Under the pieces are notes generated by a model that was given only the letters and a program-made list of their open reading frames with translations, was not told the DNA's origin and searched no databases. Of a stretch of 64,000 nucleotides of DNA, positions 44,278-61,405 are shown in pieces. How positions within the stretch are numbered: position 1 is the stretch's first letter; each line of letters opens with the position of its first letter. This DNA comes from an uncultured Acidobacteriota bacterium (GTDB lineage: Bacteria; Acidobacteriota; UBA6911; RPQK01; JAPXNP01), in contig CAVZRV010000010.1 of NCBI GenBank assembly GCA_963777605.1, forward strand, positions 96,001-160,000, in the 5' to 3' direction. The position numbers and the translations under genes were made by a program.

Positions 44278-45552
44278 TTAAACGGTACTGGGGTCCACGA
44301 CCCGGCCCATGAAGAGCATCGCGCCGGTGGCCCGGTCATAGATTACGAAGAGGAACGGGCGATCGATTCGAATCGTTGGAGGCATCGAAGTGACCCCCAT
44401 CGTGATTCCGGTGGCGGCAGCCGCCTCGGTGCCCCGCTCATTCACATCGATATAAGCTCCTTGAAAAACCCTTTGTATAAAGAGATCGGCCTGGTCCGAG
44501 ATTCCCGAAAAATCGGCCCGTTCAGGATTGAACGCCAGCGCCATTCCCATTTGCTTCAGAGCCCCGGACAACTCCAGGTCACTCTTGATCCTGAATCGCG
44601 GCATGCTGAGTTCGATATACGTCGATTCCAACCTGCTGAGGCGCTCCCGAAACCAATCCGAGGATATCGTCCGGCTCATCTCCGGGAAGTCCTCCATGCG
44701 CGAGGGGAGAAAGACCGCCATCGCAATCCTCTCGCCACGATAAGGAAGGTCCACGACCGTCCCATCTTCTGACGATTCAACCCGGTAAGCTCCGGTCCGC
44801 CGCATGAAAGGCACCTGAACGGTGTCGCCGCCGAGCCTGAGAAAATCACCCGGACGGGTGGCCCTTTCGTCAAAGGGATCCTTCCAGGTGCCCAGGAAAT
44901 AGATGGCATTGGTCAAAACCAGGCGGGTGTCCCGATTCAGGCTACCTGGAGGCAACAGTGGGTCGATCTTTCCTCCTGTCCGTTCTGCTGTCCAACGGTT
45001 GATCTGGTTCCTCGCATCGTCGAACTCCGAGGCAAAATCGAGCGGGTTCAAATCGGCATCGAACTCGCGCTTCAGGAGAGAAACGAAGTCGACCTTCAAC
45101 TGGAGCCCCTCCTGGACCCAGAGGGCATTCGCAATCTCGAGAGCAATATCTCCTGACTCCGAGGCTTGTCCCAGGGAGTCGAACAGGTTGTGGACAGCGC
45201 CGGCGATCACTTCAGAATCCGCGGCCTGCTCCTTCTCCTCGCCAGGTGCCAGAACCGAGGTCATTTCCGCCCTGGTTTTCCCATCCGCTCCGGCAGCGGT
45301 CATTGCGAGCGCGGCGTACACGCTGAAGGGCGAGCTGACGCTATCTTTATCGGTAGTTCCGGTGCGCTGAAAGAGTTCGATTGCAAACCGGTTCACGGCG
45401 TCACCGATGTTCAAAGCTGGTGGTTTTCCAGCCGGGTCCTGGCCGGTTGTACCCGGTCCCGGTGTCAGGGCGGCGCCGACCTCCGGTCGCTGACACCCCA
45501 ACATAAGGATGCTTATCAGAATCAGGGAGAGTGGATTATATAATTCGATCAC
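44278..45552 (-). CDS. Serpin, probable lipoprotein
   Basis: SPFSV, INRW, LTNAIYFLGTW, VNERGTEAAAAT, DRPFLFVI, LFMGRV; lipobox MLGC. Confidence 0.95.
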   Translation of the reverse strand: MIELYNPLSLILISILMLGCQRPEVGAALTPGPGTTGQDPAGKPPALNIGDAVNRFAIELFQRTGTTDKDSVSSPFSVYAALAMTAAGADGKTRAEMTSVLAPGEEKEQAADSEVIAGAVHNLFDSLGQASESGDIALEIANALWVQEGLQLKVDFVSLLKREFDADLNPLDFASEFDDARNQINRWTAERTGGKIDPLLPPGSLNRDTRLVLTNAIYFLGTWKDPFDERATRPGDFLRLGGDTVQVPFMRRTGAYRVESSEDGTVVDLPYRGERIAMAVFLPSRMEDFPEMSRTISSDWFRERLSRLESTYIELSMPRFRIKSDLELSGALKQMGMALAFNPERADFSGISDQADLFIQRVFQGAYIDVNERGTEAAAATGITMGVTSMPPTIRIDRPFLFVIYDRATGAMLFMGRVVDPSTV

Positions 45553-45897: not shown

Positions 45898-48800
45898 ATG
45901 CCCAATTTCACAACGCCCGGCTTCCCGGTACCGTCCCGCTCCCGACACCGCATTCTGATGTGCGCGTCGATTGTTTTTGCCGCCCTCGTTGCAACGGCCG
46001 CGCTTGCCGGAAACGCGACGCAGGTCAGCGTCGAGGTCGGCCAAATCACCGTCCCGACTTACACGTTCGGTGAGGCTCCGAACACCGCACCGCTGTTTGA
46101 AGTCGGGAATGGCAAAGGGATCTATCCTTACGGGCCACTCGATCGCGACAGCTTGAGTGCCAGCCCGCAGCCGATAAGCTACCAGTCGATCACGATCGAG
46201 AACGATTACCTCCGGGTCGTGTTTCTACCCGAACTGGGCGGGCGAATCTGGTCCGCGTGGGACAAGCAGACCCAACGCAACCTGTTCTATACCGACTCCG
46301 TCATCAAGCCGAGCGCCTACAACCAGAGGGGTGGATGGCCCGTTGGGAACCTCGAGGTCTACGGGCCGTTCGATGCCCACATGCTGACCTGGCCTGGCGA
46401 GCCATGGCCCTGGACGATCCAGCACCATTCGGACGGGAGTGCCACCGTGATCCTGTCCCATATCGACCATTTCTTCCGGGACAAACTGTTCATGGAGGTC
46501 ACGCTTCGTCCTGGTCGTTCGTTTGTCGAGCTCACCCTTCGCCTCCACAATCGGAACCAGCTTCCAAACCGGTATCTTCTCTGGACCAACGCCGGGATTC
46601 CAGCCACTGAGGGCACCCGCTTTGTTTATCCAATGACCCGCACGATCGGGCACGACACGGAAGACTTCGGTTCCTGGCCGGTATACCGCGGGGTCGATCT
46701 CAGCTGGTACCGCAACAACAAGACTATGCTGGGTGTCTTCGGGTTGGACGTCTATGATGACTTCCTTGCCGCCTACGACTACACTGCCGACCACGGTACG
46801 GTCTGCGCCAAGAACCACCAGATTGCACGAGGAATCAAGACCTGGACGTGGGGAACCGGACAGACCGGAATGCGCCACCTGGAAAGCTATGCCGATTCCG
46901 GTCTGCCCTACATCGAAGTCCAGAGCGGTCGTTTCGTCTGGGACGGCAACTACGAGTTCATTGCACCTGGCGAAAGCGACGGATGGACCGAGTACTGGTA
47001 TGGGGCCAGCGGCCTCGGAGGGCTGACCACGGCTACCCCAGACCTGGCCGTCCGCCTGGCGACCGGTCCAGACGGCGTCGAAGCCGTCCTGTTGCCAACC
47101 GGGGACTTCTCCGATGCGTCGTTCTCCTGGGCTCCCGACGGGAGGCCAGAGTATGCCACCGAGCCGATCAACCTCCGGGCCGGCCAGCCTCTTCGAAAAC
47201 TGGTCCCCGTTGAGACATCCGGGCAAGTCAAGAGCATCCGGGTGCGAGTTACTTCAGGTGACGCGACCCTGCTCGACTATCGCTTCAACCTGGACGGCGA
47301 ACCTCCGAAGGGCGAATTTGCAGCCGATGCCATCCCGCGGGATTTTGGTCCCTCCGACTCCCTGACGCTCGAAGAACTATACCTGAAGGGGCTCACCGAG
47401 GAGAAACTCGGCCGCGCAGACCGTGCCGAGGCGGCGTACCGGGAAGCTCTCCAGCGGGATCCATTGTATGTTGCGCCCAACCTCCGCCTTGGATTGATAG
47501 CCCTGTCCCGGTTCCAGGAAGAAGAGGCTCTCAAGTTCTTCAACCAGGCCCTCGATCGGGCCCCTTCCGACAGCGAACTCCACTACCTGATCGGAGTCAC
47601 CCTGACCCGAATGGGCCGGGACGAAGACGCCCGCGAACACTTTTACCGAGTGATCCCTTCGGCAGCCCAGTTCGATCAGCGCGACTTCAACCTGGGACTG
47701 ATCGCCCTCCGAAAGGGTGACGTCGGCCAGGCCCTGGGCCTCCTCCAGACCGCTGCCAAGCGGCTGCCGGAACAGTCATCGGCCCAACAGGCGTATGCCT
47801 TTTCCCTTCGAAGAGAGGACCGCCGCACTGAAGCTGAGCCGGTCATCGCCCGCCTGGTGTCAGCAGATCCAACAAGTGCATTTGCGGCCGCAGAACTGGG
47901 CTTTTGGGACTCCTGGCCCGAGGCCCGGGTCGAGGCCCTGGATCAGGTGCTGGCAAGCCATCCGCAGGGTTACCTCGAACTCGCCACCGAATACATGAAA
48001 CTTGGTGCCTGGAAAGAAGTCCAATTCCTGGCCGACCTGGCAATTCGGGCTGCCTCCCGTAATGGAGGGTCCCCCTACCCGATCCTGCTCTATTATCGGG
48101 CCGACGCACTCGATCACCTTGGAGAGACCGACCAAGCCAGGGCGCTGCTGGCTGACGCCTCCAGGACTGACGTGAAGATCAGTTTTTTCCCGTTCCGTCG
48201 GGAGACCGTCTCGGTACTGGAGGCTTGCCTCGAACTCCTCCCCCGCGATTCAAACGCGGCCTCCTTACTGGGCGACCTCTACTACTCGCGGCAGCGGCAC
48301 GACGAGGCGATCAAATTGTGGGAGGCCGCCGCCGATTGGAATCCGGCCCACTTCTCCTCACTTCGGAACCTGGGCTGGGCATTCCTTGCCCGCGGAGATT
48401 CGGAACGCGCCGTGGGATTCCTGGAACGTGCACTCCAGGTCCGGCCCGACCACCTCGAGACCGCCACAAGCCTCACCCAGCTTTACGCACGGCTGGGCAA
48501 AACCGACCAGGCGCTTGCCGTGATTGAGCAGTTGAACATCCGCAACCCGAAGAACGACCAGGTTGTCGAACTCACGGCCCGGATTCGTGCCCTGGCCGGT
48601 GACGTCAACGGATCTCTTTCTCTGCTGAACGATCACCAGTTTGGCATCCGTCATCAGTCCTATTCCCTGCTTCATCTCTACCAGAGCGTACAGCTTCTCA
48701 AGTCAGTTGAGGAATTCCGGAAAGGGGCGATCCAGGAGGCCCTCCTTCACGTCGATGCCGCCGCCCACGTTCCCGCCAACCTGGGGGTTGACGACTTCGC

Positions 48801-49221
48801 TGCATTGAAGAGCAGCCGGCTGCTTGCCTTCCGGGCGCTTCTGCTCGAGGCGTCCGGGGACCGAGACCGGTCATTGGAGGCCTGGAATGCCGCCGCCGAA
48901 ACGGTGGACCAGGACTTCGACGGCGAAGGACTTTTCCGAGCCATTGCCCTCGCTCACATCGGCAAGCGGGAAAGTGCGGCCCGGTGGTTTACTGAATTCG
49001 AGCAGGTCAATCCGACAAGGCAGAAGGACAACGACGCCGCCGTTCGCATCCACGCTACTTACCTCGCGGGCATCTACGCAATCTACCGCGGGGAATCCCG
49101 GAAAGGCCTTGAGGGCTTCAATCGAGCCCTCGACGGTGACGCATCCGATATGATGGTGAGACATGCAATAGCTGCCTTTGACGCCGGGATCCTTTCCGGA
49201 CTGCCGCTTCCCACGCGCTAG
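45898..49221 (+). CDS. DUF5107 domain + TPR repeat protein (YphG-like), exported
   Basis: IENDYLRVVFLPELGGRI, WTNAG, KTWTWG, YIEVQSG, WTEYWY, followed by TPR helices. Confidence 0.88.
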   Translation: MPNFTTPGFPVPSRSRHRILMCASIVFAALVATAALAGNATQVSVEVGQITVPTYTFGEAPNTAPLFEVGNGKGIYPYGPLDRDSLSASPQPISYQSITIENDYLRVVFLPELGGRIWSAWDKQTQRNLFYTDSVIKPSAYNQRGGWPVGNLEVYGPFDAHMLTWPGEPWPWTIQHHSDGSATVILSHIDHFFRDKLFMEVTLRPGRSFVELTLRLHNRNQLPNRYLLWTNAGIPATEGTRFVYPMTRTIGHDTEDFGSWPVYRGVDLSWYRNNKTMLGVFGLDVYDDFLAAYDYTADHGTVCAKNHQIARGIKTWTWGTGQTGMRHLESYADSGLPYIEVQSGRFVWDGNYEFIAPGESDGWTEYWYGASGLGGLTTATPDLAVRLATGPDGVEAVLLPTGDFSDASFSWAPDGRPEYATEPINLRAGQPLRKLVPVETSGQVKSIRVRVTSGDATLLDYRFNLDGEPPKGEFAADAIPRDFGPSDSLTLEELYLKGLTEEKLGRADRAEAAYREALQRDPLYVAPNLRLGLIALSRFQEEEALKFFNQALDRAPSDSELHYLIGVTLTRMGRDEDAREHFYRVIPSAAQFDQRDFNLGLIALRKGDVGQALGLLQTAAKRLPEQSSAQQAYAFSLRREDRRTEAEPVIARLVSADPTSAFAAAELGFWDSWPEARVEALDQVLASHPQGYLELATEYMKLGAWKEVQFLADLAIRAASRNGGSPYPILLYYRADALDHLGETDQARALLADASRTDVKISFFPFRRETVSVLEACLELLPRDSNAASLLGDLYYSRQRHDEAIKLWEAAADWNPAHFSSLRNLGWAFLARGDSERAVGFLERALQVRPDHLETATSLTQLYARLGKTDQALAVIEQLNIRNPKNDQVVELTARIRALAGDVNGSLSLLNDHQFGIRHQSYSLLHLYQSVQLLKSVEEFRKGAIQEALLHVDAAAHVPANLGVDDFAALKSSRLLAFRALLLEASGDRDRSLEAWNAAAETVDQDFDGEGLFRAIALAHIGKRESAARWFTEFEQVNPTRQKDNDAAVRIHATYLAGIYAIYRGESRKGLEGFNRALDGDASDMMVRHAIAAFDAGILSGLPLPTR

Positions 49222-49434: not shown

Positions 49435-49554
49435 TAACACGGCAGCACTTTAGATTTTCGTCAATGAAATGACTGGGGACTACCTGTGGCGTTAGGTGGC
49501 TGTTGCCTTTCCTGTGGCAGTCTCCAAACGGACACAGTTGCTTATGAGGAGTTT

Positions 49555-50445
49555 GTGATAAGAAGCTCAGCCGGGCGGCAGTTCAACCTCTTTGGAGTCT
49601 GCCTTTCAATCATCATAGCCGGCTACGTGACAGGACTCCTGGCTGTCGCCTATCGAGGCTATGACTACTACTTGACCCCGCTCAACGATCGGGCTTTTCA
49701 CCAGGGGCACTCCGAACTGAAACCGTCCGGAAAAATCGGGCATCGGCTTGGAACGGTCGGCGGAATCCTGATGCTGCTGACTTTTGCCTACTCGATCCGA
49801 AAGCGTTCATCTCTCCTGCAGCGAATTGGCACCCAGAAGCAATGGCTCCAGGTCCACATCTGCTTCGGACTCGGAGGTCCAATCCTGGTGGTCTTTCACA
49901 CCACCGGGAAACTCGGCGGCCTGGCGGCAATCGGTTTCTACTCGACCCTTGCCATGGTCGTCTCCGGCATCTTCGGGCGCTACCTCTACTCCAAGATTCC
50001 ACGCACGCGCAAGGGAAACGAGATGTCCCTGATCCAGATCGAACAGGAGTTTGCCGACCTGGTAAGCCGACTGGGCGGAGATCACGGAGGGAACGAACTC
50101 CTCGATGCCGTCGAATCATACCTGTCACAGGTCAGGAAACGCTCCCTTGGCCTCGGACAGGCCCTGGCCGTGGCACTCTGGGACGATCTCAAGAGTCCGC
50201 TTCGGGTTATCCAGGCGTGGAACATCGCCGCTCACCAACACGCCACGTTTAGGATCCAGTTCAGGACAACCCGACTCATCCTGAAACAGAGACGATTGCT
50301 GAAGAAATTGACGGTGATCGAGGCAAGCCAGCGCCTTTTCTCCTACTGGCACATCTTCCACCGACCTTTTACGATCCTCGCATCGGTACTCATCAGCGTT
50401 CACGTCGCGGTGGCCACTTACTTCGGGTACGGAGTCGGCTTGTGA
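49555..50445 (+). CDS. Polytopic membrane protein, ferric-reductase / cytochrome-b-like
   Basis: GAGGAG RBS + GTG; 5-6 TM with His in GHRLG, WLQVH, VFHT, YWHIFHRP and ISVHV. Confidence 0.8.
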   Translation: MIRSSAGRQFNLFGVCLSIIIAGYVTGLLAVAYRGYDYYLTPLNDRAFHQGHSELKPSGKIGHRLGTVGGILMLLTFAYSIRKRSSLLQRIGTQKQWLQVHICFGLGGPILVVFHTTGKLGGLAAIGFYSTLAMVVSGIFGRYLYSKIPRTRKGNEMSLIQIEQEFADLVSRLGGDHGGNELLDAVESYLSQVRKRSLGLGQALAVALWDDLKSPLRVIQAWNIAAHQHATFRIQFRTTRLILKQRRLLKKLTVIEASQRLFSYWHIFHRPFTILASVLISVHVAVATYFGYGVGL

Positions 50446-52310
50446 TCATTGCCCGGCTCTTTCCTGCCCTGTTGATTCTCTCAACCGGGCCTCTCGCCGC
50501 CCAAGGCCTCGAGTCTCTGGTTTCCCCCGGCACGTTGAGCCGGGCCCACGCAAACCTCTCTGGACTCGACAACTGCCAGCGCTGTCACACTCCCGGTGAA
50601 GGAGTCACCTCGAGCAAGTGCCTTTCCTGCCACACCGAGATTGCCGAGCGAATTCGTGAAGGGCGAGGTCTCCACCGAGAGGAACATTCCGACAACTGTC
50701 AAAGCTGCCATCCTGAACACCGGGGTGAAGAAGCCCAGATGACTCCATGGGATCCGACCAGCTTCGATCACGCCGAGACCGGCTATCGGCTGGAAGGCTT
50801 TCACTCCGAGGTGAAGGCATGCGATCAGTGCCACACGCCAGAACGATCACAGAAACGAGAAACGACCAAGTCCTTTCTGCTCCGATCGGACTCCTGTACG
50901 ACCTGTCACAACGACGCCCACAAAGGGGTGCTTGGACCGGGTTGCGAGCGCTGCCACAGCGTCAAACGGCACTTCAAGTCGGTCGACTTCGACCACTCAC
51001 GGGCCGCCTTCCCGCTCAGAGGCGCCCACGCTAAGGTGGCCTGCTCCCGCTGTCACGTGGACAGCCGCTGGAAAGGAATCGCCTTCTCGCAATGCCTCGA
51101 TTGCCACGCCAACCGACATCGTCCATCGCTGGGCAGCGACTGCACTCAATGCCACACGGTCAGCTCCTGGAAGATTGCGGATGCCTCAACAAGGTTTCAC
51201 CAGGCCGGCTCCGCCTTTCCCCTGCGAGGCGGACACGCAGAGGTGGCCTGCTCCAAGTGCCACCTCAACGGCCAGTTCAAAGGCATCGCCTTTCAGGAGT
51301 GCCGGAACTGTCACACCAGCAGCCCTCACCAGGGGCAGTTCAGTCAAGATTGCAAATCGTGCCATACCGAAGACAACTTCACGAAGACGACGTTTCGGCA
51401 CGAATCGGCTCGGTTTCGCCTCAACGGGAAGCACCTGGGAGTCGCATGCAGCAAGTGCCATCCTAGGGAGAAGGTCGAATTCGCCGAGAAGACGGTTGCG
51501 TTCACCCGCTATCGCCCACTTTCGACCGAATGCCGTGCCTGTCACGATGACATCCACCTTGGGCAGTTCAGCCAACCCTGCGCCAAATGCCATTCGACCG
51601 GAGGCTTCGGCTTGAGCCAGATCTCCTTCTCGCACAACACCGACTCCGACTTTGTTCTCAAGGGAAGTCACATCGGCCTCGTATGCGGGCGCTGCCACAA
51701 ATCGGAGAGGGGTACGTTTCCTGCCGGGTTTGGACAGGCGGTCCGGTTTCTCCCCATCTCTCCTACCTGTGAGACCTGTCACCCAGACCAGCATGGGGGG
51801 CAACTGGGCGATCAATGCGCATCCTGTCACACGGTTGAACACTTCAAACCGGCATCGGGGTTCAACCATCGAATGGCGCGCTTTCAACTCACCGGCAAGC
51901 ACCAGGATCTCCCCTGCGCCGACTGTCACCCGAGAGTAAAGCGTGTGCCGTCCTCGGGAGAAACCTTGATGCGGACCCTCTACCGGCCCTTGCGCAAAGA
52001 GTGCAGCAGCTGTCACAAGGATCCTCATCGCCGGGCGGACCAAGCCTCATGTGACGAGTGCCATACCTCGAAAACCTTCGAGGTTAGAAACTTCAACCAT
52101 TTTGAGACGTCGTTCGCGCTGATGGGACGACACGCCAGCCTGGCCTGCGAGCGCTGTCACACCCAGACGAACTGGAACGGCAAAGTGGTGCTTACCTTCG
52201 CCCACGTTCGCCGTGAATGCCAGGATTGCCACAAATCCCCCCATCGGTCTCGTTACGGCGAGTGTGGTCGCTGTCATGTCACGACAACCTGGGTGATCAG
52301 TGATTTTTAG
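50442..52310 (+). CDS. 24-heme c-type cytochrome (8 triheme modules)
   Basis: 24 CxxCH counted; signal peptide; repeating FxH...FxLxGxH. Confidence 0.95.
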   Translation: MIIARLFPALLILSTGPLAAQGLESLVSPGTLSRAHANLSGLDNCQRCHTPGEGVTSSKCLSCHTEIAERIREGRGLHREEHSDNCQSCHPEHRGEEAQMTPWDPTSFDHAETGYRLEGFHSEVKACDQCHTPERSQKRETTKSFLLRSDSCTTCHNDAHKGVLGPGCERCHSVKRHFKSVDFDHSRAAFPLRGAHAKVACSRCHVDSRWKGIAFSQCLDCHANRHRPSLGSDCTQCHTVSSWKIADASTRFHQAGSAFPLRGGHAEVACSKCHLNGQFKGIAFQECRNCHTSSPHQGQFSQDCKSCHTEDNFTKTTFRHESARFRLNGKHLGVACSKCHPREKVEFAEKTVAFTRYRPLSTECRACHDDIHLGQFSQPCAKCHSTGGFGLSQISFSHNTDSDFVLKGSHIGLVCGRCHKSERGTFPAGFGQAVRFLPISPTCETCHPDQHGGQLGDQCASCHTVEHFKPASGFNHRMARFQLTGKHQDLPCADCHPRVKRVPSSGETLMRTLYRPLRKECSSCHKDPHRRADQASCDECHTSKTFEVRNFNHFETSFALMGRHASLACERCHTQTNWNGKVVLTFAHVRRECQDCHKSPHRSRYGECGRCHVTTTWVISDF

Positions 52311-52313
52311 AGC

Positions 52314-54032
52314 ATGCATGAGGAGAATCCATTGAACCGCAATTTGATTCGCTTTGCCGGACAGGCCCGGGTTCGCCTCTCGGGCGTGATTCTTGGACTT
52401 CTCGGGCTGCTGGCCTGCCCTCTTCTGGCCGCCGAAACCAGGCCCAAGTCGCCAGCTATCTCAGGAGTCGTGAAGGATCCCTCCGGATTCCTCATCCCCG
52501 GCTGCTCCGTCTCGCTAGTCACAACCGAGCTCCAACAGCTGAACCAGACGCTGACCAGCGACCTTGGACAATTCACCTTTGAAAACGTTCAGCCGGGTAG
52601 CTACGTTGTCGATGTCCAAGCAGCGGGATTCAAGGACCGGCGTGTCGAAAATGTCCTCCTGACCTCAGACCAGGCAGTCAAGCTCGAGATTGTCCTTGAA
52701 CTGGCGAGCCGGACCGACCAGGCGGAAGTGGTCGCCCAACGGGAAGAGGCGGGAGAGGAGACCAAGCTCAAGCTGATCGACCATCCCCTCGATCCCCCTG
52801 AATTCATGCGGCAGGAACTTCCTCGTCAGCCGTTACTGAAGCGGGGTCGCCTTTACTCCGACTGGTTCGGGATTCGGACCGGCGATCGATTTGTGAACCA
52901 ACTCAGCAACCGTGCCAAGATGGAGTTCGGAGAACCCGGCCTGGGCTGGAACGCCCGTTTCGATTTTCGCGATCGGGTCACCCTCGGGGGCAGCACATCC
53001 CACATCCTGAGCGTTTACGATGCCCGCCTGGTCTATGACAATGTTCGGCATCCGCTCTATGCATCCGTCGGCCAGATGAACCTTTACGATACGGCCGGCA
53101 TCGGGGAACTCCTGGGGGGCCTCTTCGGAGTGAGACCAACCACCCGGCTCCTGGTTGGGGGCTACGGGGGACTTAAACCCGACCTTTACCGAACCCAGGT
53201 AGACCCGGCATTCAGAAAGTACGGCCTCTTCGCTCGCTACGTCGGCCCCAAGGCCCAGAGTTTCTCGATCAGCTACAATCAGTTGCGATACTCGGGGAAC
53301 ACCGAACGGAGTTATCTCTATTTCAACGGACTGACCAACGTCGGTGACCGGGCGGTCCTCTACGGGAACGCCGAGTTCGAACTCGGGTCCCACATCCGGT
53401 CCTCGGACCGCCTTTCGCGCTTGTTTCTGAACGGTCGCTTCGACCTGAGCCGGCGGTTCGACCTGATCGCGAACTACAGCAGCGGAAAAGGCCTCGACTT
53501 TCACCGGTTTCTCCTGGAGCGGGCTCAGGATCCTTTGGGCAACCAGAACGAACTGGAGCGCTTCTATTACAACTCCCAGTACGGCATCCGCCTCCGCTAT
53601 CGCCTGTCCGACAACTGGCGTGTGTTCTTCGGTCAACGGATGAGCGAGCGGAAGGATATCTCGATCCAGAACCGGACCACTCAGCTCGGAGTCACGGCTT
53701 CGCGGATTCGCGATCTCGGACTATCTCTCTATGCCAACTACAACATCAACCGGGGCGATGCCTCGGAGTCCGATTCGTTCTACCTTTCGATCTCAAAGAC
53801 ACTCGGGAAACATTCTTGGAGCACGAGTTACTCGACATCGTTTAACGGCCTGCGATTCAACAGTGCGGCTGGCGTTCCCGAGGTGGTCCACCTGGCGTCG
53901 CGAAGCACGCTTTTCAACGAACTCTTCTTCGTTATCAACCGGACTCTTGCCCTTTCATTCCAGCACGAACACACATTTGGTCTGATCCAGGGGGAGGACC
54001 TCTTCTTCGTCCGTTTCATTTTGAGGATGTAG
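52314..54032 (+). CDS. Probable outer-membrane beta-barrel with N-terminal carboxypeptidase-regulatory-like domain
   Basis: Signal peptide; ISGVVKDPSG...GQFTFENVQPGSY; then aromatic/Gly-rich alternating strands ending LFFVRFILRM. Confidence 0.75.
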   Translation: MHEENPLNRNLIRFAGQARVRLSGVILGLLGLLACPLLAAETRPKSPAISGVVKDPSGFLIPGCSVSLVTTELQQLNQTLTSDLGQFTFENVQPGSYVVDVQAAGFKDRRVENVLLTSDQAVKLEIVLELASRTDQAEVVAQREEAGEETKLKLIDHPLDPPEFMRQELPRQPLLKRGRLYSDWFGIRTGDRFVNQLSNRAKMEFGEPGLGWNARFDFRDRVTLGGSTSHILSVYDARLVYDNVRHPLYASVGQMNLYDTAGIGELLGGLFGVRPTTRLLVGGYGGLKPDLYRTQVDPAFRKYGLFARYVGPKAQSFSISYNQLRYSGNTERSYLYFNGLTNVGDRAVLYGNAEFELGSHIRSSDRLSRLFLNGRFDLSRRFDLIANYSSGKGLDFHRFLLERAQDPLGNQNELERFYYNSQYGIRLRYRLSDNWRVFFGQRMSERKDISIQNRTTQLGVTASRIRDLGLSLYANYNINRGDASESDSFYLSISKTLGKHSWSTSYSTSFNGLRFNSAAGVPEVVHLASRSTLFNELFFVINRTLALSFQHEHTFGLIQGEDLFFVRFILRM

Positions 54033-54040
54033 GTGTCTCG

Positions 54041-55495
54041 ATGAACTACCTCGTTTGGTTTGGAATATTCCTGGTACTCGCCATTCTCGCCACCGTTCCG
54101 GTGCACTTTCACCTTTCCTCCATGAGTAAGAAGGAGTCCGGATCGGACCGCGGGCCCGGAAGCGGAGTTAAACTTCGGGATTGCCCGGGCTGCGGCAGCC
54201 CGACGCCGGTCGATGCGGCGTTTTGCGACAAGTGCGGCGTTCCGATGATGCTCTGGTCGTTGAAGCAAGCTCGGGAGGTCCAGGGAGAGCAGCAGAACCA
54301 GGGAAAAGCGGTACCCATCATCGATCAAGATGTCTGCATCGGATGCAGTGCCTGTGTCAACGCCTGCGATGAAGCCGTGCTGGAAATCGTGGCCGGTAAG
54401 TCCGCCGTCACCAATGTGAGTGCCTGCACCAGTGCCGGGACCTGTGTCGAAGTCTGCCCGACCGGCGCTTGCCAGCTTGGGGGCGGCGGTGCCGCCCGTC
54501 GAGTCGAGGTGCCGCAGATCGACGGGGACTTCCAGACCAACCAGGCCGGTGTCTATGCCGTCGGCGAACTCGGTGGCCTGGGACTAATCAAAAGCGCAAT
54601 CGCGGAAGGCCAAATGGTAATCGAGCGGATCGCCCCCAACCATGAACCGCGAGAGGGGGTGCTCGACCTGGTGATCGTCGGATCGGGACCTGCGGGACTG
54701 TCGGCGGCCCTGGCGGCCAAAACCAAGGGCCTGTCGGCCATCATCCTTGAGCAGGGGAACCTCGCCAACACCATCCGGAAGTACCCCAATCGGAAGATCG
54801 TCATGGCGGAACCGATCAAGATCCCCATGTACGGCTCGCTCTGGATCTCGGACGCACCCAAGGAAACTCTCCTCGGAGTCTGGCAGACCATCATCGACTC
54901 ATCCGGGATCGCCGTGAACGAAAACGAGAAAGTCCTTTCCATCCAGCGCCAGGACGATGGAACCTTCGTCACTGGAACGCCCAAAGGCACATACCACAGC
55001 CAGAAGGTCATTCTCGCCATCGGGAAGCGCGGAACTCCCAATGAACTCCCGGCGCCCGGAGCCGGGTTGCCTAAGGTCCTTTACACCCTGACCGACACGG
55101 CCCAATACCGTGACAGCAGGATCCTTGTCGTCGGCGGGGGAGACTCGGCGGCCGAGGCAGCGATTACGCTGGCTCGCCAGCCCGGCAACGAGGTGGTCAT
55201 GTCCTACCGGCGCGCTGAGTTCACTCGCCTGAAGCCCAAGAACCTGGAGGGAATCGAGTCAAGCACTGCATCCGGAGAAGTTCGCCTGCTGCTCGGAAGC
55301 CAGGTTACAGAGGTGACCCCGTCCACCGTCTCAGTTCTGCTTTCGTCCGGAGAAGTTCAGACCATTGAGAACGATTACGTGTTCGCTTTTCTGGGCGGAA
55401 CCTCGCCGAAGAGCTTCCTGGCAGAGATCGGTGTCGAGATGGTGACCAAGGAAGTCGCAATGGAGCTTCAGAAAGGGCATCATGAAGCGGTTTAG
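54041..55495 (+). CDS. Membrane-anchored zinc-ribbon / ferredoxin / FAD-NAD(P)H oxidoreductase (TrxR-like fold)
   Basis: N-terminal TM; CPGC..CDKC; CIGCSACVNAC; CTSAGTCVEVCP; VYAVGE; GSGPAG; GGGDSA; SYRR. Confidence 0.9.
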   Translation: MNYLVWFGIFLVLAILATVPVHFHLSSMSKKESGSDRGPGSGVKLRDCPGCGSPTPVDAAFCDKCGVPMMLWSLKQAREVQGEQQNQGKAVPIIDQDVCIGCSACVNACDEAVLEIVAGKSAVTNVSACTSAGTCVEVCPTGACQLGGGGAARRVEVPQIDGDFQTNQAGVYAVGELGGLGLIKSAIAEGQMVIERIAPNHEPREGVLDLVIVGSGPAGLSAALAAKTKGLSAIILEQGNLANTIRKYPNRKIVMAEPIKIPMYGSLWISDAPKETLLGVWQTIIDSSGIAVNENEKVLSIQRQDDGTFVTGTPKGTYHSQKVILAIGKRGTPNELPAPGAGLPKVLYTLTDTAQYRDSRILVVGGGDSAAEAAITLARQPGNEVVMSYRRAEFTRLKPKNLEGIESSTASGEVRLLLGSQVTEVTPSTVSVLLSSGEVQTIENDYVFAFLGGTSPKSFLAEIGVEMVTKEVAMELQKGHHEAV

Positions 55496-58400
55496 ACCTT
55501 CCCAGTGGGCCGTCCTTCTGGTACTTCCGGTGCTTCTCTGCTCGGTGGTTCCAGCCCAGGAGGGTTCGCGGGGCCGGGTTTTCGAGCACGACAAAACGAA
55601 CTTTCCGCTCACCGGCCGGCACCGGACAATAGCTTGCGCCGAGTGCCACCTCGGCGGGCAACTTGAAGGCACTCCGGTCGCGTGCGAAGCCTGCCACTGG
55701 GACCGCCGCCAGGACGACCGTTACAACCTCCAGCTTGGAATCAACTGCGCCGAGTGTCACACCACGGAAGGCTGGAAGGCGGTTTCAGCAGACGCCTGGA
55801 ACCACGAGGCACGCACCGGGTTCCGCCTCGAGGGCTATCACCGGTCAATCGAGTGCACCGACTGTCACACAGACGGATTCGAGGGACTCTCCCCTGATTG
55901 CATTTCCTGTCATCAAGGCGACTTTGAGCGGGCAGAGAGCCCCAATCACGTCGCCCTGGCCTTCCCGAATGACTGCGTGCTCTGTCACACCAGCCAGACC
56001 AGTTGGGGCGGCGCAGTTTTCAATCACGCGAATTTCCCCTTGCGCGGGCAGCACCAGACGGTGGCCTGCGTGACTTGTCACAAAGACGGCGTCTTTGAGG
56101 GCTTGGCCTCGGAGTGCATTGCCTGTCACCGTCCCGATTTCGAGTCCACAACCGACCCGAACCATGTCACCGCTGGCTTCCCCACCGATTGCGTCAATTG
56201 CCACGGAGATTCGGCAACCAGCTGGGACAACGCCGACTTCGATCACTCCAGCTTTCCCCTCCGCGGCAAGCACGAGACCGCATTGTGCAGTTCCTGCCAC
56301 GCCGATGGTGTCTTCGCCGGCCTTGCCTCGGACTGCATCTCGTGTCACCGATCGGAATTCGAATCAACAACCGATCCGAACCATGTCGCCGCCGGATTCT
56401 CCAACGATTGCGCCTCCTGCCATGGCGGCCAGGCAACCGCCTGGGACGGCGCAACCTTCGAGCATGACAACTGGCCACTGCGCGGCCAGCACCAGGCCAC
56501 CGCCTGCGCCACCTGCCACAAGGACGGGGTGTTTGCAGGCCTGGCCTCGGAGTGTATCTCTTGTCACCGTCCCGAGTTTGAAGCGACGACCGATCCCAAC
56601 CACGTCACCGCGGGCTTTCCCACGGATTGCGTCACCTGCCACGGAGATTCGGCAACCAGTTGGGACAATGCCGACTTTAATCACGACACATTCCCTCTGC
56701 GCGGCAAGCATGAGACCGCATTGTGCAGTTCCTGCCACAAGGATGGTGTCTTCGCCGGGCTGGCCTCGGACTGCATCTCGTGTCACCGATCGGAATTCGA
56801 ATCAACAACCGATCCGAACCATGTGGCGGCCGGATTCTCCAACGACTGCGTCTCCTGTCATGGCGACCAGGCAACCGCCTGGGACGGCGCAACCTTCGAG
56901 CATGACAACTGGCCACTGCGGGGCCAGCACCAGACCACGGCGGCCTGCGCCACCTGCCACAAGAACGGCGTCTTTGCGGGTCTCGCCTCCGATTGTGTCT
57001 CCTGCCACCGGTCCGAGTTCGATTCCACGACGGACCCGAACCACGTCACTGCGGGATTCCCCACGGATTGCGTGACCTGCCACGGGACTCCGCCACCCGG
57101 TGGGACAAGGCCACCTTCGATCACGACTCCTGGCCTTTGAAAGGACAGCACCAGACGGTGGCCTGCGCCACCTGTCACAAGAACGGCGTCTTTGCGGGTC
57201 TCGCCTCCGATTGTGTCTCCTGCCACCGGTCCGAGTTCGATTCCGCGACGGACCCGAACCAGTCAGTTGCTGGATTCCCCACGGATTGCGTGACCTGCCA
57301 TGGAGACTCCGCCACCACCTGGGACAAGGCCACCTTCGACCACGACTCCTGGCCTTTGAAAGGACAGCACCAGACGGTGGCCTGCGCCACCTGTCACAAG
57401 AACGGCGTCTTTGCGGGTCTCGCCTCCGATTGTGTCTCCTGCCACCGGTCCGAGTTCGATTCCGCGACGGACCCGAACCACGTCGTTGCTGGATTCCCCA
57501 CGGATTGCGTGACCTGCCACGGAGACTCCGCCACCACCTGGGACAATGCCACCTTCGACCACGACTCCTGGCCTTTGAAAGGACAGCACCAGACGGTGGC
57601 CTGCGCCACCTGTCACAAGAACGGCGTCTTTGCGGGTCTCGCCTCCGATTGTGTCTCCTGCCACCGGTCCGATTTCGATTCCGCGACGGACCCGAACCAC
57701 GTCACTGCGGGATTCCCTACGGATTGCGTGACCTGCCATGGTGACTCCGCCACCCGGTGGGACGGGGCCACCTTCGATCATGACTCCTGGCCTTTGAAGG
57801 GACAGCACCAGACGGTGGCCTGCGCCACCTGTCACAAGGATGGAGTCTTCGCCGGACTGGCCTCGGAGTGCGTTTCCTGCCACCGATCCGATTTCGATTC
57901 TGCGACGGACCCGAACCACGTCACTGCTGGATTCCCCACGGATTGCGTGACCTGCCATGGTGATTCCGCCACCCGCTGGGACAGGGCCACCTTTGATCAT
58001 GACTCCTGGCCTTTGAAGGGACAGCACCAGACGGTGGCCTGCGCCACCTGTCACAAGAACGGCGTCTTTGCGGGACTCGCCTCCGACTGTGTCTCCTGCC
58101 ACCGATCCGAGTTCGATTCCGCGACGGACCCCAACCACGTCAGTGCGGGATTCCCCACGGATTGCGTGACCTGCCATGGTGATTCGGCAACCCGGTGGGA
58201 CGGGGCCACCTTTGATCATGACTCCTGGCCTTTGAAGGGACAGCATCAGACGGTGGCCTGCGCCACCTGTCACAAGGATGGAGTCTTCGCCGGACTGGCA
58301 TCGGAGTGCGTTTCCTGCCACCGATCCGAGTTCGATTCTGCGACGGACCCGAACCACGTCATGCGGGATTTCCTACGGATTGCGTGACCTGCCATGGTGA

Positions 58401-58848
58401 TTCGGCAACCCGGTGGGACGGGGCCACCTTTGACCATTCGGTTTGGCCCCTGCAGGGCGCACACCGGACCCTCAGTTGCCAGACTTGTCACAGCGCTGGA
58501 TACAACCTGCCTCGAGACTGCTACGGCTGTCATGCCGCCGATTACAACTCGACACAAAGTCCCAATCATTCGGCCTCGGGATTCCCGACAACGTGTGACT
58601 CCTGCCACTTCCCCGAACATGTCTACTGGAACCAGGCCGTTTTTCAGCATGACTTCCCGATCACTTCTGGGGCCCACAGGAATGTTGAGTGCCAGGAATG
58701 TCACCTCACCGCCAACTTCCTCGAATTCAGCTGCATCGACTGCCATGAGCACGCAAAAAATGAAACCGATCGACACCACCGAGAGGTCGGCGGCTACGTT
58801 TACAACAGCCAGGCGTGCTATTCCTGCCACCCCAATGGGCGCGAGTAA
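55482..58848 (+). CDS. Giant 45-heme c-type cytochrome (about 1120 aa; 15 triheme modules), split by 1-bp deletions near 57086 and 58362
   Basis: 21+17+7 CxxCH in three consecutive frames; neighbouring repeat copies show the missing bases (cacgg[a]gactcc; gtca[c]tgcggga); signal peptide. Confidence 0.9.
56020..58440 (+). repeat. About 11 tandem copies of a 219-bp (73-aa) triheme unit
   Basis: Near-identical DSATxWDxATFDHDSWPLKGQHQTVACATCH...CVSCH...CVTCHG; shadow ORFs recur at 219- and 438-bp offsets. Confidence 0.95.
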
Positions 58849-58859
58849 AGGAAACAACT

Positions 58860-59711
58860 ATGAGAAATACAGCTCTGATTTTGGTTGCGTTACTTGTCCT
58901 AACCACCTGGACTGCTTGCAACTCCCAGGCCGATCTGGTGACTGCAGAAACAGGCGCAACAGGAATCCAGGTGGTTGCGGCTCACACCGCGGACACTACG
59001 CAGGCGCCACAGCCCGCATCTACTTCAATGCCGCCTGAAACGGAAGATCTTCCCAAGAGCGAGGGCCAGGATCAGTTGATCCGTGGAACGGTCACCGAGG
59101 TGATCGAAGCGAGCCAGTACGTCTACGTCTGCGTAAATTCCGGAAGCGAATCTCGATGGGTCGCCACCAACTCGCTCGACGTAAAATCTGGAGACTCCGT
59201 GGAGTTCGAGCAGGGCCTCCTGATGAGAAACTTCAAGAGCCCCTCAATGGGCAGGGTCTTTCCGGCGATCCTCTTTGTTCAGGGTCTGCAGGTCACCAGT
59301 CGCCCGACTGTCCAGGTCACAGCAGTGAAAGGACTCCCCTCCGGGCACCCCTCCGTCCCCAAGAGCGCGCGTACCGCGGCCCGGGAGGTAGCCCGTCCCA
59401 ACCCGGGTTCGATTCCCCGGCTGAAGGATACGCTGACAATTGAGGCAATCCAGAAAGATCAGGAGGCTCTCAACGGAAAGGCGGTGTCGGTGGTCGGAAT
59501 GGTCACGAAAGTCAGCGCCAACATCATGGATCGTAACTGGATTCACCTGGTTGATGAAGACGGGCGCGAGCTGGTGGTCACCTCCAGCGCTACCGCTGTT
59601 CCCGGCTCCATCCAGGTCGCCCGGGGAACTCTCGTTGTCGGCAAGGCTTTTGAAACCGGGTACTACGTTCCACTTCTCCTCGAGAATTCAACGTTGGATT
59701 CCGCTTCCTGA
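58860..59711 (+). CDS. NrfJ-like double OB-fold lipoprotein
   Basis: Lipobox WTAC; GTVTEVIEASQYVYV...WVA...MRNFKSPSMGRVF; LPSGHP; IMDRNWIHL. Confidence 0.7.
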   Translation: MRNTALILVALLVLTTWTACNSQADLVTAETGATGIQVVAAHTADTTQAPQPASTSMPPETEDLPKSEGQDQLIRGTVTEVIEASQYVYVCVNSGSESRWVATNSLDVKSGDSVEFEQGLLMRNFKSPSMGRVFPAILFVQGLQVTSRPTVQVTAVKGLPSGHPSVPKSARTAAREVARPNPGSIPRLKDTLTIEAIQKDQEALNGKAVSVVGMVTKVSANIMDRNWIHLVDEDGRELVVTSSATAVPGSIQVARGTLVVGKAFETGYYVPLLLENSTLDSAS

Positions 59712-59945: not shown

Positions 59946-60034
59946 ATGCGAGTTCGCACATTAGCACGGAGAATCCGGCCCATGCCAATCTTTCCTGGCT
60001 TGTCCGGAAAAGCGCAATTCGGTAGTATCCATTG

Positions 60035-61405
60035 ATGTCTCGCCGGTTTCGTTCCGTCCTTTGGGCGCTGATGGTCCTCGGGTTCGGCCCCGCCCCGGTT
60101 GCTCGAGCCCAGGTCGCCAAAGCAGGCGAGAACCCCCCAAATGTCATCCTGCTGGTCCTCGACGCGACTCGCCTCGACCACCTCTCGACTTATGGCTGCC
60201 CCCTCAAAATTACCCCCAGGATTGATGAAATTGCCGCCCGTTCAACCGTGTACGAGCAATGCATAGCGGCGGCTCCATGGACGCTGCCTTCCGTTGCCTC
60301 CCTGATGACCGGACTCTTTCCCCACAGACATGGAGTGAATTGCCAGAACCTGAACCTGCGGGACACCTACACGACCCTGGCCGAGAGACTCCGCGATTCT
60401 GGATATCGGACCGCCGGCTATTCAGGAAACCCCTGGATTGGCTCGTTCTCGGGAATGGCCCAGGGTTTCGAAATCTTTGAGGATATCTGGCGGGAACTGG
60501 GAGACGATCCAGTTGACGCTGGTGCCACAGAAGCGAATCGGCGCGCACTTCAGTGGATTGATTCCCTTCCCGGCGAAGACCCGTTCTTCCTTTACATCCA
60601 CTACATGGAACCCCACTTTCCCTACCGGCCTCCTCGCCCCTTCGATCGCGCGTTTGAATCGCAGCCACTGGATGATGCCGTCCTGGAGCGGGTCCGGAGT
60701 TGGAAAACTCCACGGGAACTCGGATACATCCTCAAAGATCCCAGCAGCCTGATTTCTCCGGAGGAAATGCGTGCTCTTCAGGTCGAATACAAAGGCGAGG
60801 TAGGCTACCTCGATATGCAGATTGGCGCACTGATCGACGCCCTCACCAGCCGTGGCCTGCTCGATAGGAGCCTGCTCGTCATTACGGCCGACCACGGCGA
60901 ACACCTGGGCGATCACCAACTGCTCGATCACAAGTTCTCCGTCTATGAGAACCTGATTCGAGTTCCTCTGATCATCCGCTATCCTGACGGCCACCTGGTG
61001 GGAACCCGGGTGAAACGGCAAGTGCAGAACATCGACCTGGTCCCGACGGTCATGCGCTACACAGGACACGCGGATGTTCCCTGCGACGGAACCGTGCTCC
61101 CTCGACAGGATGACTCGGAGACCCCTGTCCGCATAGCGTTCACGGAGTTTTCCCGGCCCCTCCTGTTCACCGACGTCATCGAGGAGCATTTCCCGATGGC
61201 GGACTATTCCTTCATCGACCGGGCTCTTCTTTCCCTGCGAACCGACCGTTACAAGTTGATCTGGGCGTCCGACGGAAAGAACCAACTCTACGACCTGGCC
61301 AACGATCCGGGAGAGCAGGAGAATTTGATCGGCAGACAGCCTTCAATCGCGAAAGACCTGCTGGAGAGGGCCCGGAAGTTCCAGGAAAAAGGCTCCGGGC
61401 ACTAG
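60035..61405 (+). CDS. Secreted sulfatase-like hydrolase (alkaline phosphatase superfamily)
   Basis: PNVILLVLDATRLDHL, APWTLPSVASLMTG, HYMEPHFPY, TADHGE, LYDLANDPGE. Confidence 0.9.
   Translation: MSRRFRSVLWALMVLGFGPAPVARAQVAKAGENPPNVILLVLDATRLDHLSTYGCPLKITPRIDEIAARSTVYEQCIAAAPWTLPSVASLMTGLFPHRHGVNCQNLNLRDTYTTLAERLRDSGYRTAGYSGNPWIGSFSGMAQGFEIFEDIWRELGDDPVDAGATEANRRALQWIDSLPGEDPFFLYIHYMEPHFPYRPPRPFDRAFESQPLDDAVLERVRSWKTPRELGYILKDPSSLISPEEMRALQVEYKGEVGYLDMQIGALIDALTSRGLLDRSLLVITADHGEHLGDHQLLDHKFSVYENLIRVPLIIRYPDGHLVGTRVKRQVQNIDLVPTVMRYTGHADVPCDGTVLPRQDDSETPVRIAFTEFSRPLLFTDVIEEHFPMADYSFIDRALLSLRTDRYKLIWASDGKNQLYDLANDPGEQENLIGRQPSIAKDLLERARKFQEKGSGH

Follow-up and report, generated by a model that had tools for sequence, protein, structure and literature searches.

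Within the 64,000-nucleotide (nt) stretch of DNA analysed here (the window), which derives from an uncultured Acidobacteriota bacterium, three successive open reading frames (ORFs) on the forward strand together carry 45 CxxCH motifs. We are confident that they represent one gene split by indels and consider it probable, with less assurance, that its product is the long cytochrome, variable in length, of a PCC3-like conduit for electrons across the cell envelope. The gene and the features inside it are:

55482..58848 (+), 45-heme c-type cytochrome of ~1122 aa in 15 triheme modules, with a signal-peptide-like N-terminus; annotated as three ORFs
55581..55796 (+), module 1, with the motif CHWxRRQDD instead of the P-x-H linker; W41, R43, D46 and D47 are invariant in 50 rows
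57085..57087 (+), first frame break, where one base is absent relative to the sister units (gap at ~57086 in the unit DNA alignment)
57260..57268 (+), apparent compensated -1/+1 indel pair, located at ~57262-57267, by which a conserved distal His becomes Gln; overlooked in the first-pass annotation
58360..58363 (+), second frame break, likewise short of one base (gap at ~58362 in the unit DNA alignment)

The 45 motifs of 55482-58848 are distributed as 21, 17 and 7 over the three successive plus-strand frames, against a mean of 0.12 and a maximum of 2 in 200 base shuffles, and Tandem Repeats Finder reports a period of 219 nt. The first-pass annotation of this DNA had joined the ORFs into a chain of ~1120 aa by restoring two bases, with 15 triheme modules and about one heme per 25 aa; the alignment of sister units shows both gaps, and filling them yields a gene of 1122 codons, with ~25 aa to each heme and a computed holo-mass of ~146 kDa, so that both counts are reproduced. 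The modules (n=15) are ~73 aa long with the ligand order H,H,CxxCH,CxxCH,H,CxxCH, and the internal ones follow the consensus F-x-H, [FW]PL-x-G-x-H, CxxCH, CxxCH, P-N-H, CxxCH, W, an arrangement in which the hemes, if loaded, would be bis-His ligated. The earlier assignment of three extra His to every module agrees with the total of 46 His outside CxxCH for 45 hemes, but not with each module: module 1 is without the third His, the C-terminal module carries surplus ones, and in the module at 57116 Gln replaces His through the apparent compensated -1/+1 pair. The chain has a T+S+A+G content of 34-37% and is strongly acidic, the net charges of segments one and two being -38 and -30. Its repeat units are pairwise 62-97% identical, none the same, with a longest exact repeat of 140 nt; because every unit differs, a collapsed or duplicated repeat number, which the first-pass annotation had raised as a possible artefact, is unlikely.

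The sequence beyond the breaks argues for a single chain. Downstream of the first break the four fully in-frame modules each retain all 16 invariant positions, the fifth deviating at the compensated pair only, and the damage totals four single-base indels, with no nonsense change and no Cys or His substitution besides that pair. All indels lie in units sharing 82-97% identity. A genome of the same family (G014) holds an intact orthologue, a single 36-heme ORF in identical gene order, and another (G010) has 39 hemes and a separate 1-nt insertion within its repeats. Among 80 related loci, 67 were judged complete, a non-independent set that may include some of the family relatives; 63 of these 67 hold a single ORF and 4 are broken. 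We reject programmed frameshifting, since the relatives are single ORFs. Assembly or polishing indels in the most uniform repeats would have split one gene into three ORFs. Genome-wide, a paralogue-based screen returned 232 frameshift candidates in 2.05 Mb under lenient settings, and strict settings, applied to large contigs (1.03 Mb), gave 68; some of these candidates are expected to be true pseudogenes.

An alternative that we regard as improbable is that the indels are real, recent slipped-strand mutation having cut the product down to 21 hemes or turned the gene into a new pseudogene, possibly as a reversible length switch. Tandem repeats are prone to slippage, and some observations do speak against an error in the data: the window's contig is nearly clean (1 frameshift candidate in 82 kb), and rpoC and rpoB (cut by a contig end) are both unbroken. 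The sequencing data are uninformative on this point: the contigs of the one DNA run (share 0.07) give scattered coverage, and no break is spanned by any of the 8 pieces listed out of 11. Four indels within 1.3 kb of a clean contig, a local density well above its background, need a repeat-specific cause, and real slippage could supply one; the 4 broken relatives among the 67 complete ones, several of them broken directly past P-N-H, point the same way. Real indels are harder to reconcile with the lack of accompanying stops or Cys/His substitutions, with breaks outside long homopolymer runs, with an undamaged conserved C-terminal module, and with the compensated -1/+1 pair, whose members stand six bases apart, as is typical of consensus errors. 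Breaks within a few codons after P-N-H are seen in three related loci (L031, L033 and L098) as well as at 57262 and 58362 of the window, a possible hot spot of error or slippage. Where assemblies split such cytochromes, these can be undercounted.

As judged from sequence, it is the neighbour genes, passed over in the first-pass annotation, that identify the system. The long chain belongs to a run of six same-strand genes with intergenic gaps of -4, 3, 8, -14 and 11 nt, the others being:

49486..50445 (+), inner-membrane di-heme cytochrome-b-like protein (IMP) of the PCC3/PCC4 type, assigned by motifs and a weak PF01794 match; start uncertain
50442..52310 (+), 24-heme cytochrome, predicted to be periplasmic from its signal peptide; same repeat superfamily as the long chain, net charge +16
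52314..54032 (+), probable beta-barrel of the outer membrane, with a carboxypeptidase-regulatory-like domain (PF13620) at the N-terminus, the barrel being by inference only
54041..55495 (+), membrane-anchored 2x[4Fe-4S] + FAD/NAD(P)H oxidoreductase, YpdA/TrxR-like, under family cut-offs
58860..59711 (+), predicted lipoprotein without a Pfam family, the final operon gene, with homologues in G010, G014 and Emticicia

The IMP (319 aa) has WX3HX13H at residues 120 and 288 and SGIFG at 160; a crude hydropathy scan gives 3 segments above threshold, against the five helices expected of a PCC3 IMP. For the barrel candidate, the nearest named Atlas clusters are outer-membrane proteins (0.91-0.98), OMP_b-brl matches at E 0.24, and the strand count of 5 is no better than in shuffles (mean 3.6); a PDB sequence search with the porin profile gave no match. 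Cytochrome c assembly genes and a type II secretin are encoded in the genome. A promoter and terminator scan found sites no more frequently than in shuffles, and a CCP_MauG search contributed nothing.

The finding is real and, by gene content, the chain is probably the kind of long cytochrome that is typical of PCC3-like clusters. As described in the available passages of He et al. (He 2017, PMC5566968) and Hoover et al. (PMC10734462), PCC3 comprises an IMP with two WX3HX13H motifs and SGXXG, a 21-27-heme periplasmic cytochrome, an outer-membrane protein and a second, repeat-built cytochrome with a median of 34 and up to 85 hemes at 22-39 aa per heme, whose AlphaFold models are long and mostly linear and for which a role as wire or capacitor is hypothesized. 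The window IMP carries both motifs of He 2017, its 24-heme protein lies inside the 21-27 range, and its long chain has 45 hemes at 25 aa per heme and is rich in T/S/A/G. It differs in that, in those passages, the cluster is described from Proteobacteria, whereas the window is from an Acidobacteriota, and in that the FAD/4Fe-4S and lipoprotein genes fall outside the four-gene definition.

A metagenome search with the window IMP returned 24 loci, several of which encode a pair of 24/27-heme and 10-14-heme cytochromes together with a porin gene, in agreement with the PCC3 heme numbers in the available passages of Hoover et al. (PMC10734462); these clusters include Gallionellaceae-named members. 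Compared with one Gallionellaceae-type locus (L128), the window IMP is 30% identical (E 4e-20) and the FAD protein 40%, and the window 24-heme protein is 31% identical over 638 aa to a 27-heme protein of a Gallionellaceae cluster. The long chain is closer to the PCC3 protein of the periplasm, at 31-33% identity (E 1e-49 to 1e-57), than to the extracellular protein with 11 hemes, at 26-27% (E ~1e-11). The FAD gene occurs in 13 of the 14 IMP loci of at least 5 kb, the 10 shorter loci being left out; a literature search, with most subscription papers outside its scope, found no report of a linked NAD(P)H flavoprotein. In L125, L126, L128, L131 and L133 the FAD/4Fe-4S gene stands divergently beside the IMP as a fifth gene beyond the four-gene definition, and L133 has an additional 849-aa gene between IMP and cytochrome. 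In the IMP tree, the Gallionellaceae-type sequences lie apart from those of Acidobacteriota and Emticicia; with its long branches, the tree is no test of origin.

Patterns across the cytochrome-centred set are consistent with such a conduit. Near the 48 of its 80 loci with enough flank for neighbour counts, we find a partner cytochrome in 46, a porin in 40, an IMP in 19, an FAD gene in 7 (all 7 also with an IMP) and the lipoprotein in 2. Free partners have 6 hemes in 29 cases, 23-24 in 15 and other numbers in 4, and the IMP is present at 17 of 20 loci whose partner has at least 20 hemes, at 2 of 24 with a shorter one and at none of the 4 without a partner. Heme counts among 56 complete unfused orthologues run from 12 to 39 and are a multiple of three in 55; the 45 hemes of the window extend this three-heme length series. 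At 11 of the 80 loci one fused polypeptide begins with exactly 24 partner hemes and runs on into the long chain, the module register being unbroken, and among 240 homologous proteins 15 have a partner-like start, 13 of these with 24 hemes ahead of the junction. These patterns fit, at the level of sequence, a fixed half that spans the periplasm, continued end to end by a half of free length. Module 1 is where the partner joins the long chain in the fused relatives and, with its distinct motif, may be a docking or junction module. Neither fusions nor three-heme steps across lineages were found in the literature within the same scope; the available passages of Arbour (PMC7399161) do describe module gain and loss.

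Electrons would be exchanged between NAD(P)H or quinol and the FAD/4Fe-4S protein, between this and the di-heme cytochrome b, from there with the fixed 24-heme cytochrome across the periplasm, and, through the beta-barrel, with the 45-heme chain of bis-His triheme modules. MtrA measures ~100 Å for ten hemes (He 2017, PMC5566968) and the periplasm ~17 nm (PMC11492766), according to the passages available. At 8-10 Å per heme, the 24-heme protein would reach ~19-24 nm, compared with those ~17 nm, and the 45-heme chain, if straight, ~35-45 nm; the chain would store charge too. The wire-or-capacitor idea of the first-pass annotation gains support from the intact orthologues and the operon, but is not new, having been in print for PCC3-type clusters (available passages of PMC5566968, PMC10734462 and PMC7399161).

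Several points count against the conduit. The barrel identity of 52314..54032 is itself inferential, and comparison of the window porin with the one porin tried, that of L128, gave an hhalign probability of 0.1%, no detectable homology; as the porin test failed against this example, strict PCC3 membership is not established. The IMP is missing near 29 of the 48 well-flanked loci, and since the relatives are kin the locus counts are descriptive and not independent. The overall shape of the chain is not resolved by the four-module model (pTM 0.27). According to the available passages, S. lithotrophicus ES-1 lowers PCC3 expression on Fe(II) (PMC8788666), and proteomes of S. lithotrophicus did not reveal the extracellular PCC3 cytochrome (PMC11429942). 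PCC3 is functionally untested, as far as the accessible parts of the sources go (PMC5566968, PMC10734462, PMC11429942, PMC8788666, 10.1101/2025.02.27.639646, PMC13386937, PMC11475568).

It is also conceivable, although we think it unlikely, that the intact chain remains periplasmic, or is suspended from the barrel, and serves to store charge or buffer redox changes instead of being an outward wire, its capacity being set by module number. Its signal peptide is ordinary and its repeat type the same as that of the periplasmic partner, and the seamless fusion to the partner at 11 of 80 loci means that both halves are exported together. The cassette is also found in Emticicia, an aerobe not known for metal respiration, and a capacitor role has been proposed (available passages of PMC10734462 and PMC11495043). 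On the other hand, a porin-like gene is present at 40 of 48 loci, and a partner fixed near 24 (or 6) hemes next to a chain of 12 to at least 39 fits a periplasm-measured half with a free outer half, as the conduit would have it.

The first-pass annotation had linked the chain to the c7 polymers of Geobacter, a tie that the comparisons do not sustain. Like GSU1996, the window protein strings triheme modules in tandem along one polypeptide and has roughly one His to spare for each heme, PF14522 scores 89.8 against a gathering score of 24.8 (c3 models also pass), and Atlas neighbours are labelled c7. The module sequence is different, however, with no significant profile or structural match of GSU1996 to the window chain: TIGR04257 reaches 28.9 against a cut-off of 40 (on slices, 24 of 107 at E<=0.01, best 6.5e-5), the repeat profile finds GSU1996 at E 0.011, behind unrelated multihemes, and a two-module model (pLDDT 83) compared with 3ov0 gives a template-modelling (TM) score of 0.18 and a root-mean-square deviation of 9.7 Å. 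The ligand order of c7 is H,H,C,H,C,C, as opposed to H,H,C,C,H,C in the window module; no passage giving the c7 order was found in PMC8163978. A polymer of true, PpcA-type c7 domains is thus highly improbable. In a PDB sequence search with the repeat, the best hit (E 0.0034) was similar at motif level only. The modelling of several modules proposed in the first-pass annotation was carried out with AlphaFold on four; the model (pLDDT 59.8, pTM 0.27) matched no fold and did not show the elongated shape.

The family is large. With the intact G014 protein as query, and a score ranking that favours long proteins, 4988 of 8000 scored candidates matched; the best 120 of these 4988 have a median of 51 hemes and a maximum of 64, and 93 of the 120 hold at least 45. 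Judged by sequence, 45 hemes is an ordinary size for the family, and the rarity implied by the first-pass annotation was mistaken. A set of longer proteins gave 296 matches, with a median of 79 among the 120 listed, nine of at least 100 and a maximum of 137. Named hosts are Acidobacteriota, Bacteroidota, Ignavibacteria, Gemmatimonadetes, Zixibacteria and Eisenbacteria, and in the window's own order the repeat is found in 7 of 65 genomes. The protein with 137 CxxCH (P0121, 3415 aa) consists of a 24-heme partner fused to a repeat tail; this count lies above the published maxima given below, but its repeats contain an identical run of 274 aa, and the count may be inflated by assembly duplication. 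By itself a 45-heme protein is unremarkable, with homologues in the thousands and published maxima, in the passages available, of 85 (He 2017, PMC5566968), 112 (PMC11495043), 113 (PMC11492766) and 116 motifs (peat preprint); the literature search found no report of more than 116 hemes. A minimal version, with a 6-heme partner, a porin and a 12-24-heme chain, occurs at 29 loci among L032-L095, mostly labelled Aminicenantes, where IMP and flavoprotein are usually absent nearby; several loci labelled Eubacteriales or Clostridia (L034, L035, L039-L041 and others) also have the cluster of the porin type and fall together with Aminicenantes, as L039 does in the IMP tree, which may reflect mislabelling or binning.

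A plasmid search gave 1 match in 72,556 records, pEMTOL02 of Emticicia oligotrophica DSM 17448, with ccsA, an IMP (34%), an FAD protein (37%), a 23-heme protein, an intact 40-heme protein and a lipoprotein (21%); its outer-membrane candidate gave no BLAST match to the window porin. The whole cassette lies at L134:2930-15514, under the locus tags EMTOL_RS21085-RS22055, of the 100-kb plasmid of this cultured Bacteroidota strain, adjoined by an extracytoplasmic function (ECF) sigma factor gene. The literature search found no report of the Emticicia cassette.

Other published systems resemble the window in part. According to the available passages of PMC7399161, the Burkholderiales S13 porin cluster likewise has a constant 24-heme cytochrome and a larger one (49), which varies by insertion and deletion of heme domains, with a porin adjoining; there the porin is called OmbB-like and no IMP or flavoprotein is mentioned, and the likeness is one of description. 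The PCC4/ptd operon (available passages of PMC5566968 and 10.1101/2023.11.21.568154) shares a porin, a ferric-reductase-like IMP, an FAD/NAD(P) oxidoreductase and a 4Fe-4S protein, but has cytochromes of 4, 5 and 10 hemes and no long repeat chain. The giant secreted multihemes of Saprospiraceae and Paludibaculum (PMC11495043) probably belong to the same family as the window chain, whose homologues include a 112-heme Bryobacterales protein and Saprospiraceae proteins; the passages available of that source give heme counts, not repeat, partner or operon. The cytochromes of extracellular electron transfer modelled in 10.64898/2026.05.27.727921 have 8-13 hemes in the part available.

Elsewhere in the window, 44278-45552 (-) encodes a bacterial serpin (PF00079, E 6e-106) whose N-terminus is like that of a lipoprotein. 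The operon is flanked by a DUF5107-TPR protein at 45898-49221 (+) and a sulfatase at 60032-61405 (+), neither kept beside it in relatives save for a weak TPR match in L025. The genome of the window has 35 ORFs with at least 4 CxxCH, and two further clusters of multiheme ORFs lie at G000:C29:210685-232380 (19, 10, 10, 10, 11 and 5 motifs) and C11:76221-88147 (13, 4, 5, 11 and 4), and in G014 the lipoprotein gene (L021:6296-8660) is split by ~1.3 kb of other sequence.

The locus yields testable statements on PCC3-type clusters, namely lengths in triheme steps, a fixed 24-heme partner and a linked NAD(P)H flavoprotein; the natural fusions constrain how a wire crosses the outer membrane, and the complete cassette on the plasmid of the cultured Emticicia oligotrophica DSM 17448 offers a route to testing. 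A bolder joint claim, which we put forward only as a doubtful possibility, is that the family constitutes a covalent, genetically length-tuned wire, threaded through the barrel and fed by NAD(P)H. If so, a 24-heme ruler would cross the periplasm and continue, end to end, into a tail grown by three-heme steps; with ruler and tail fused in one polypeptide, the tail would be threaded through the barrel and not secreted separately. The triheme module may then be a fold without a solved relative. The 137-motif fusion would extend for some 100 nm, provided that it is straight and its assembly correct, and cytoplasmic NAD(P)H would feed the chain via the flavoprotein and the ferric-reductase-like cytochrome b, bypassing quinones.

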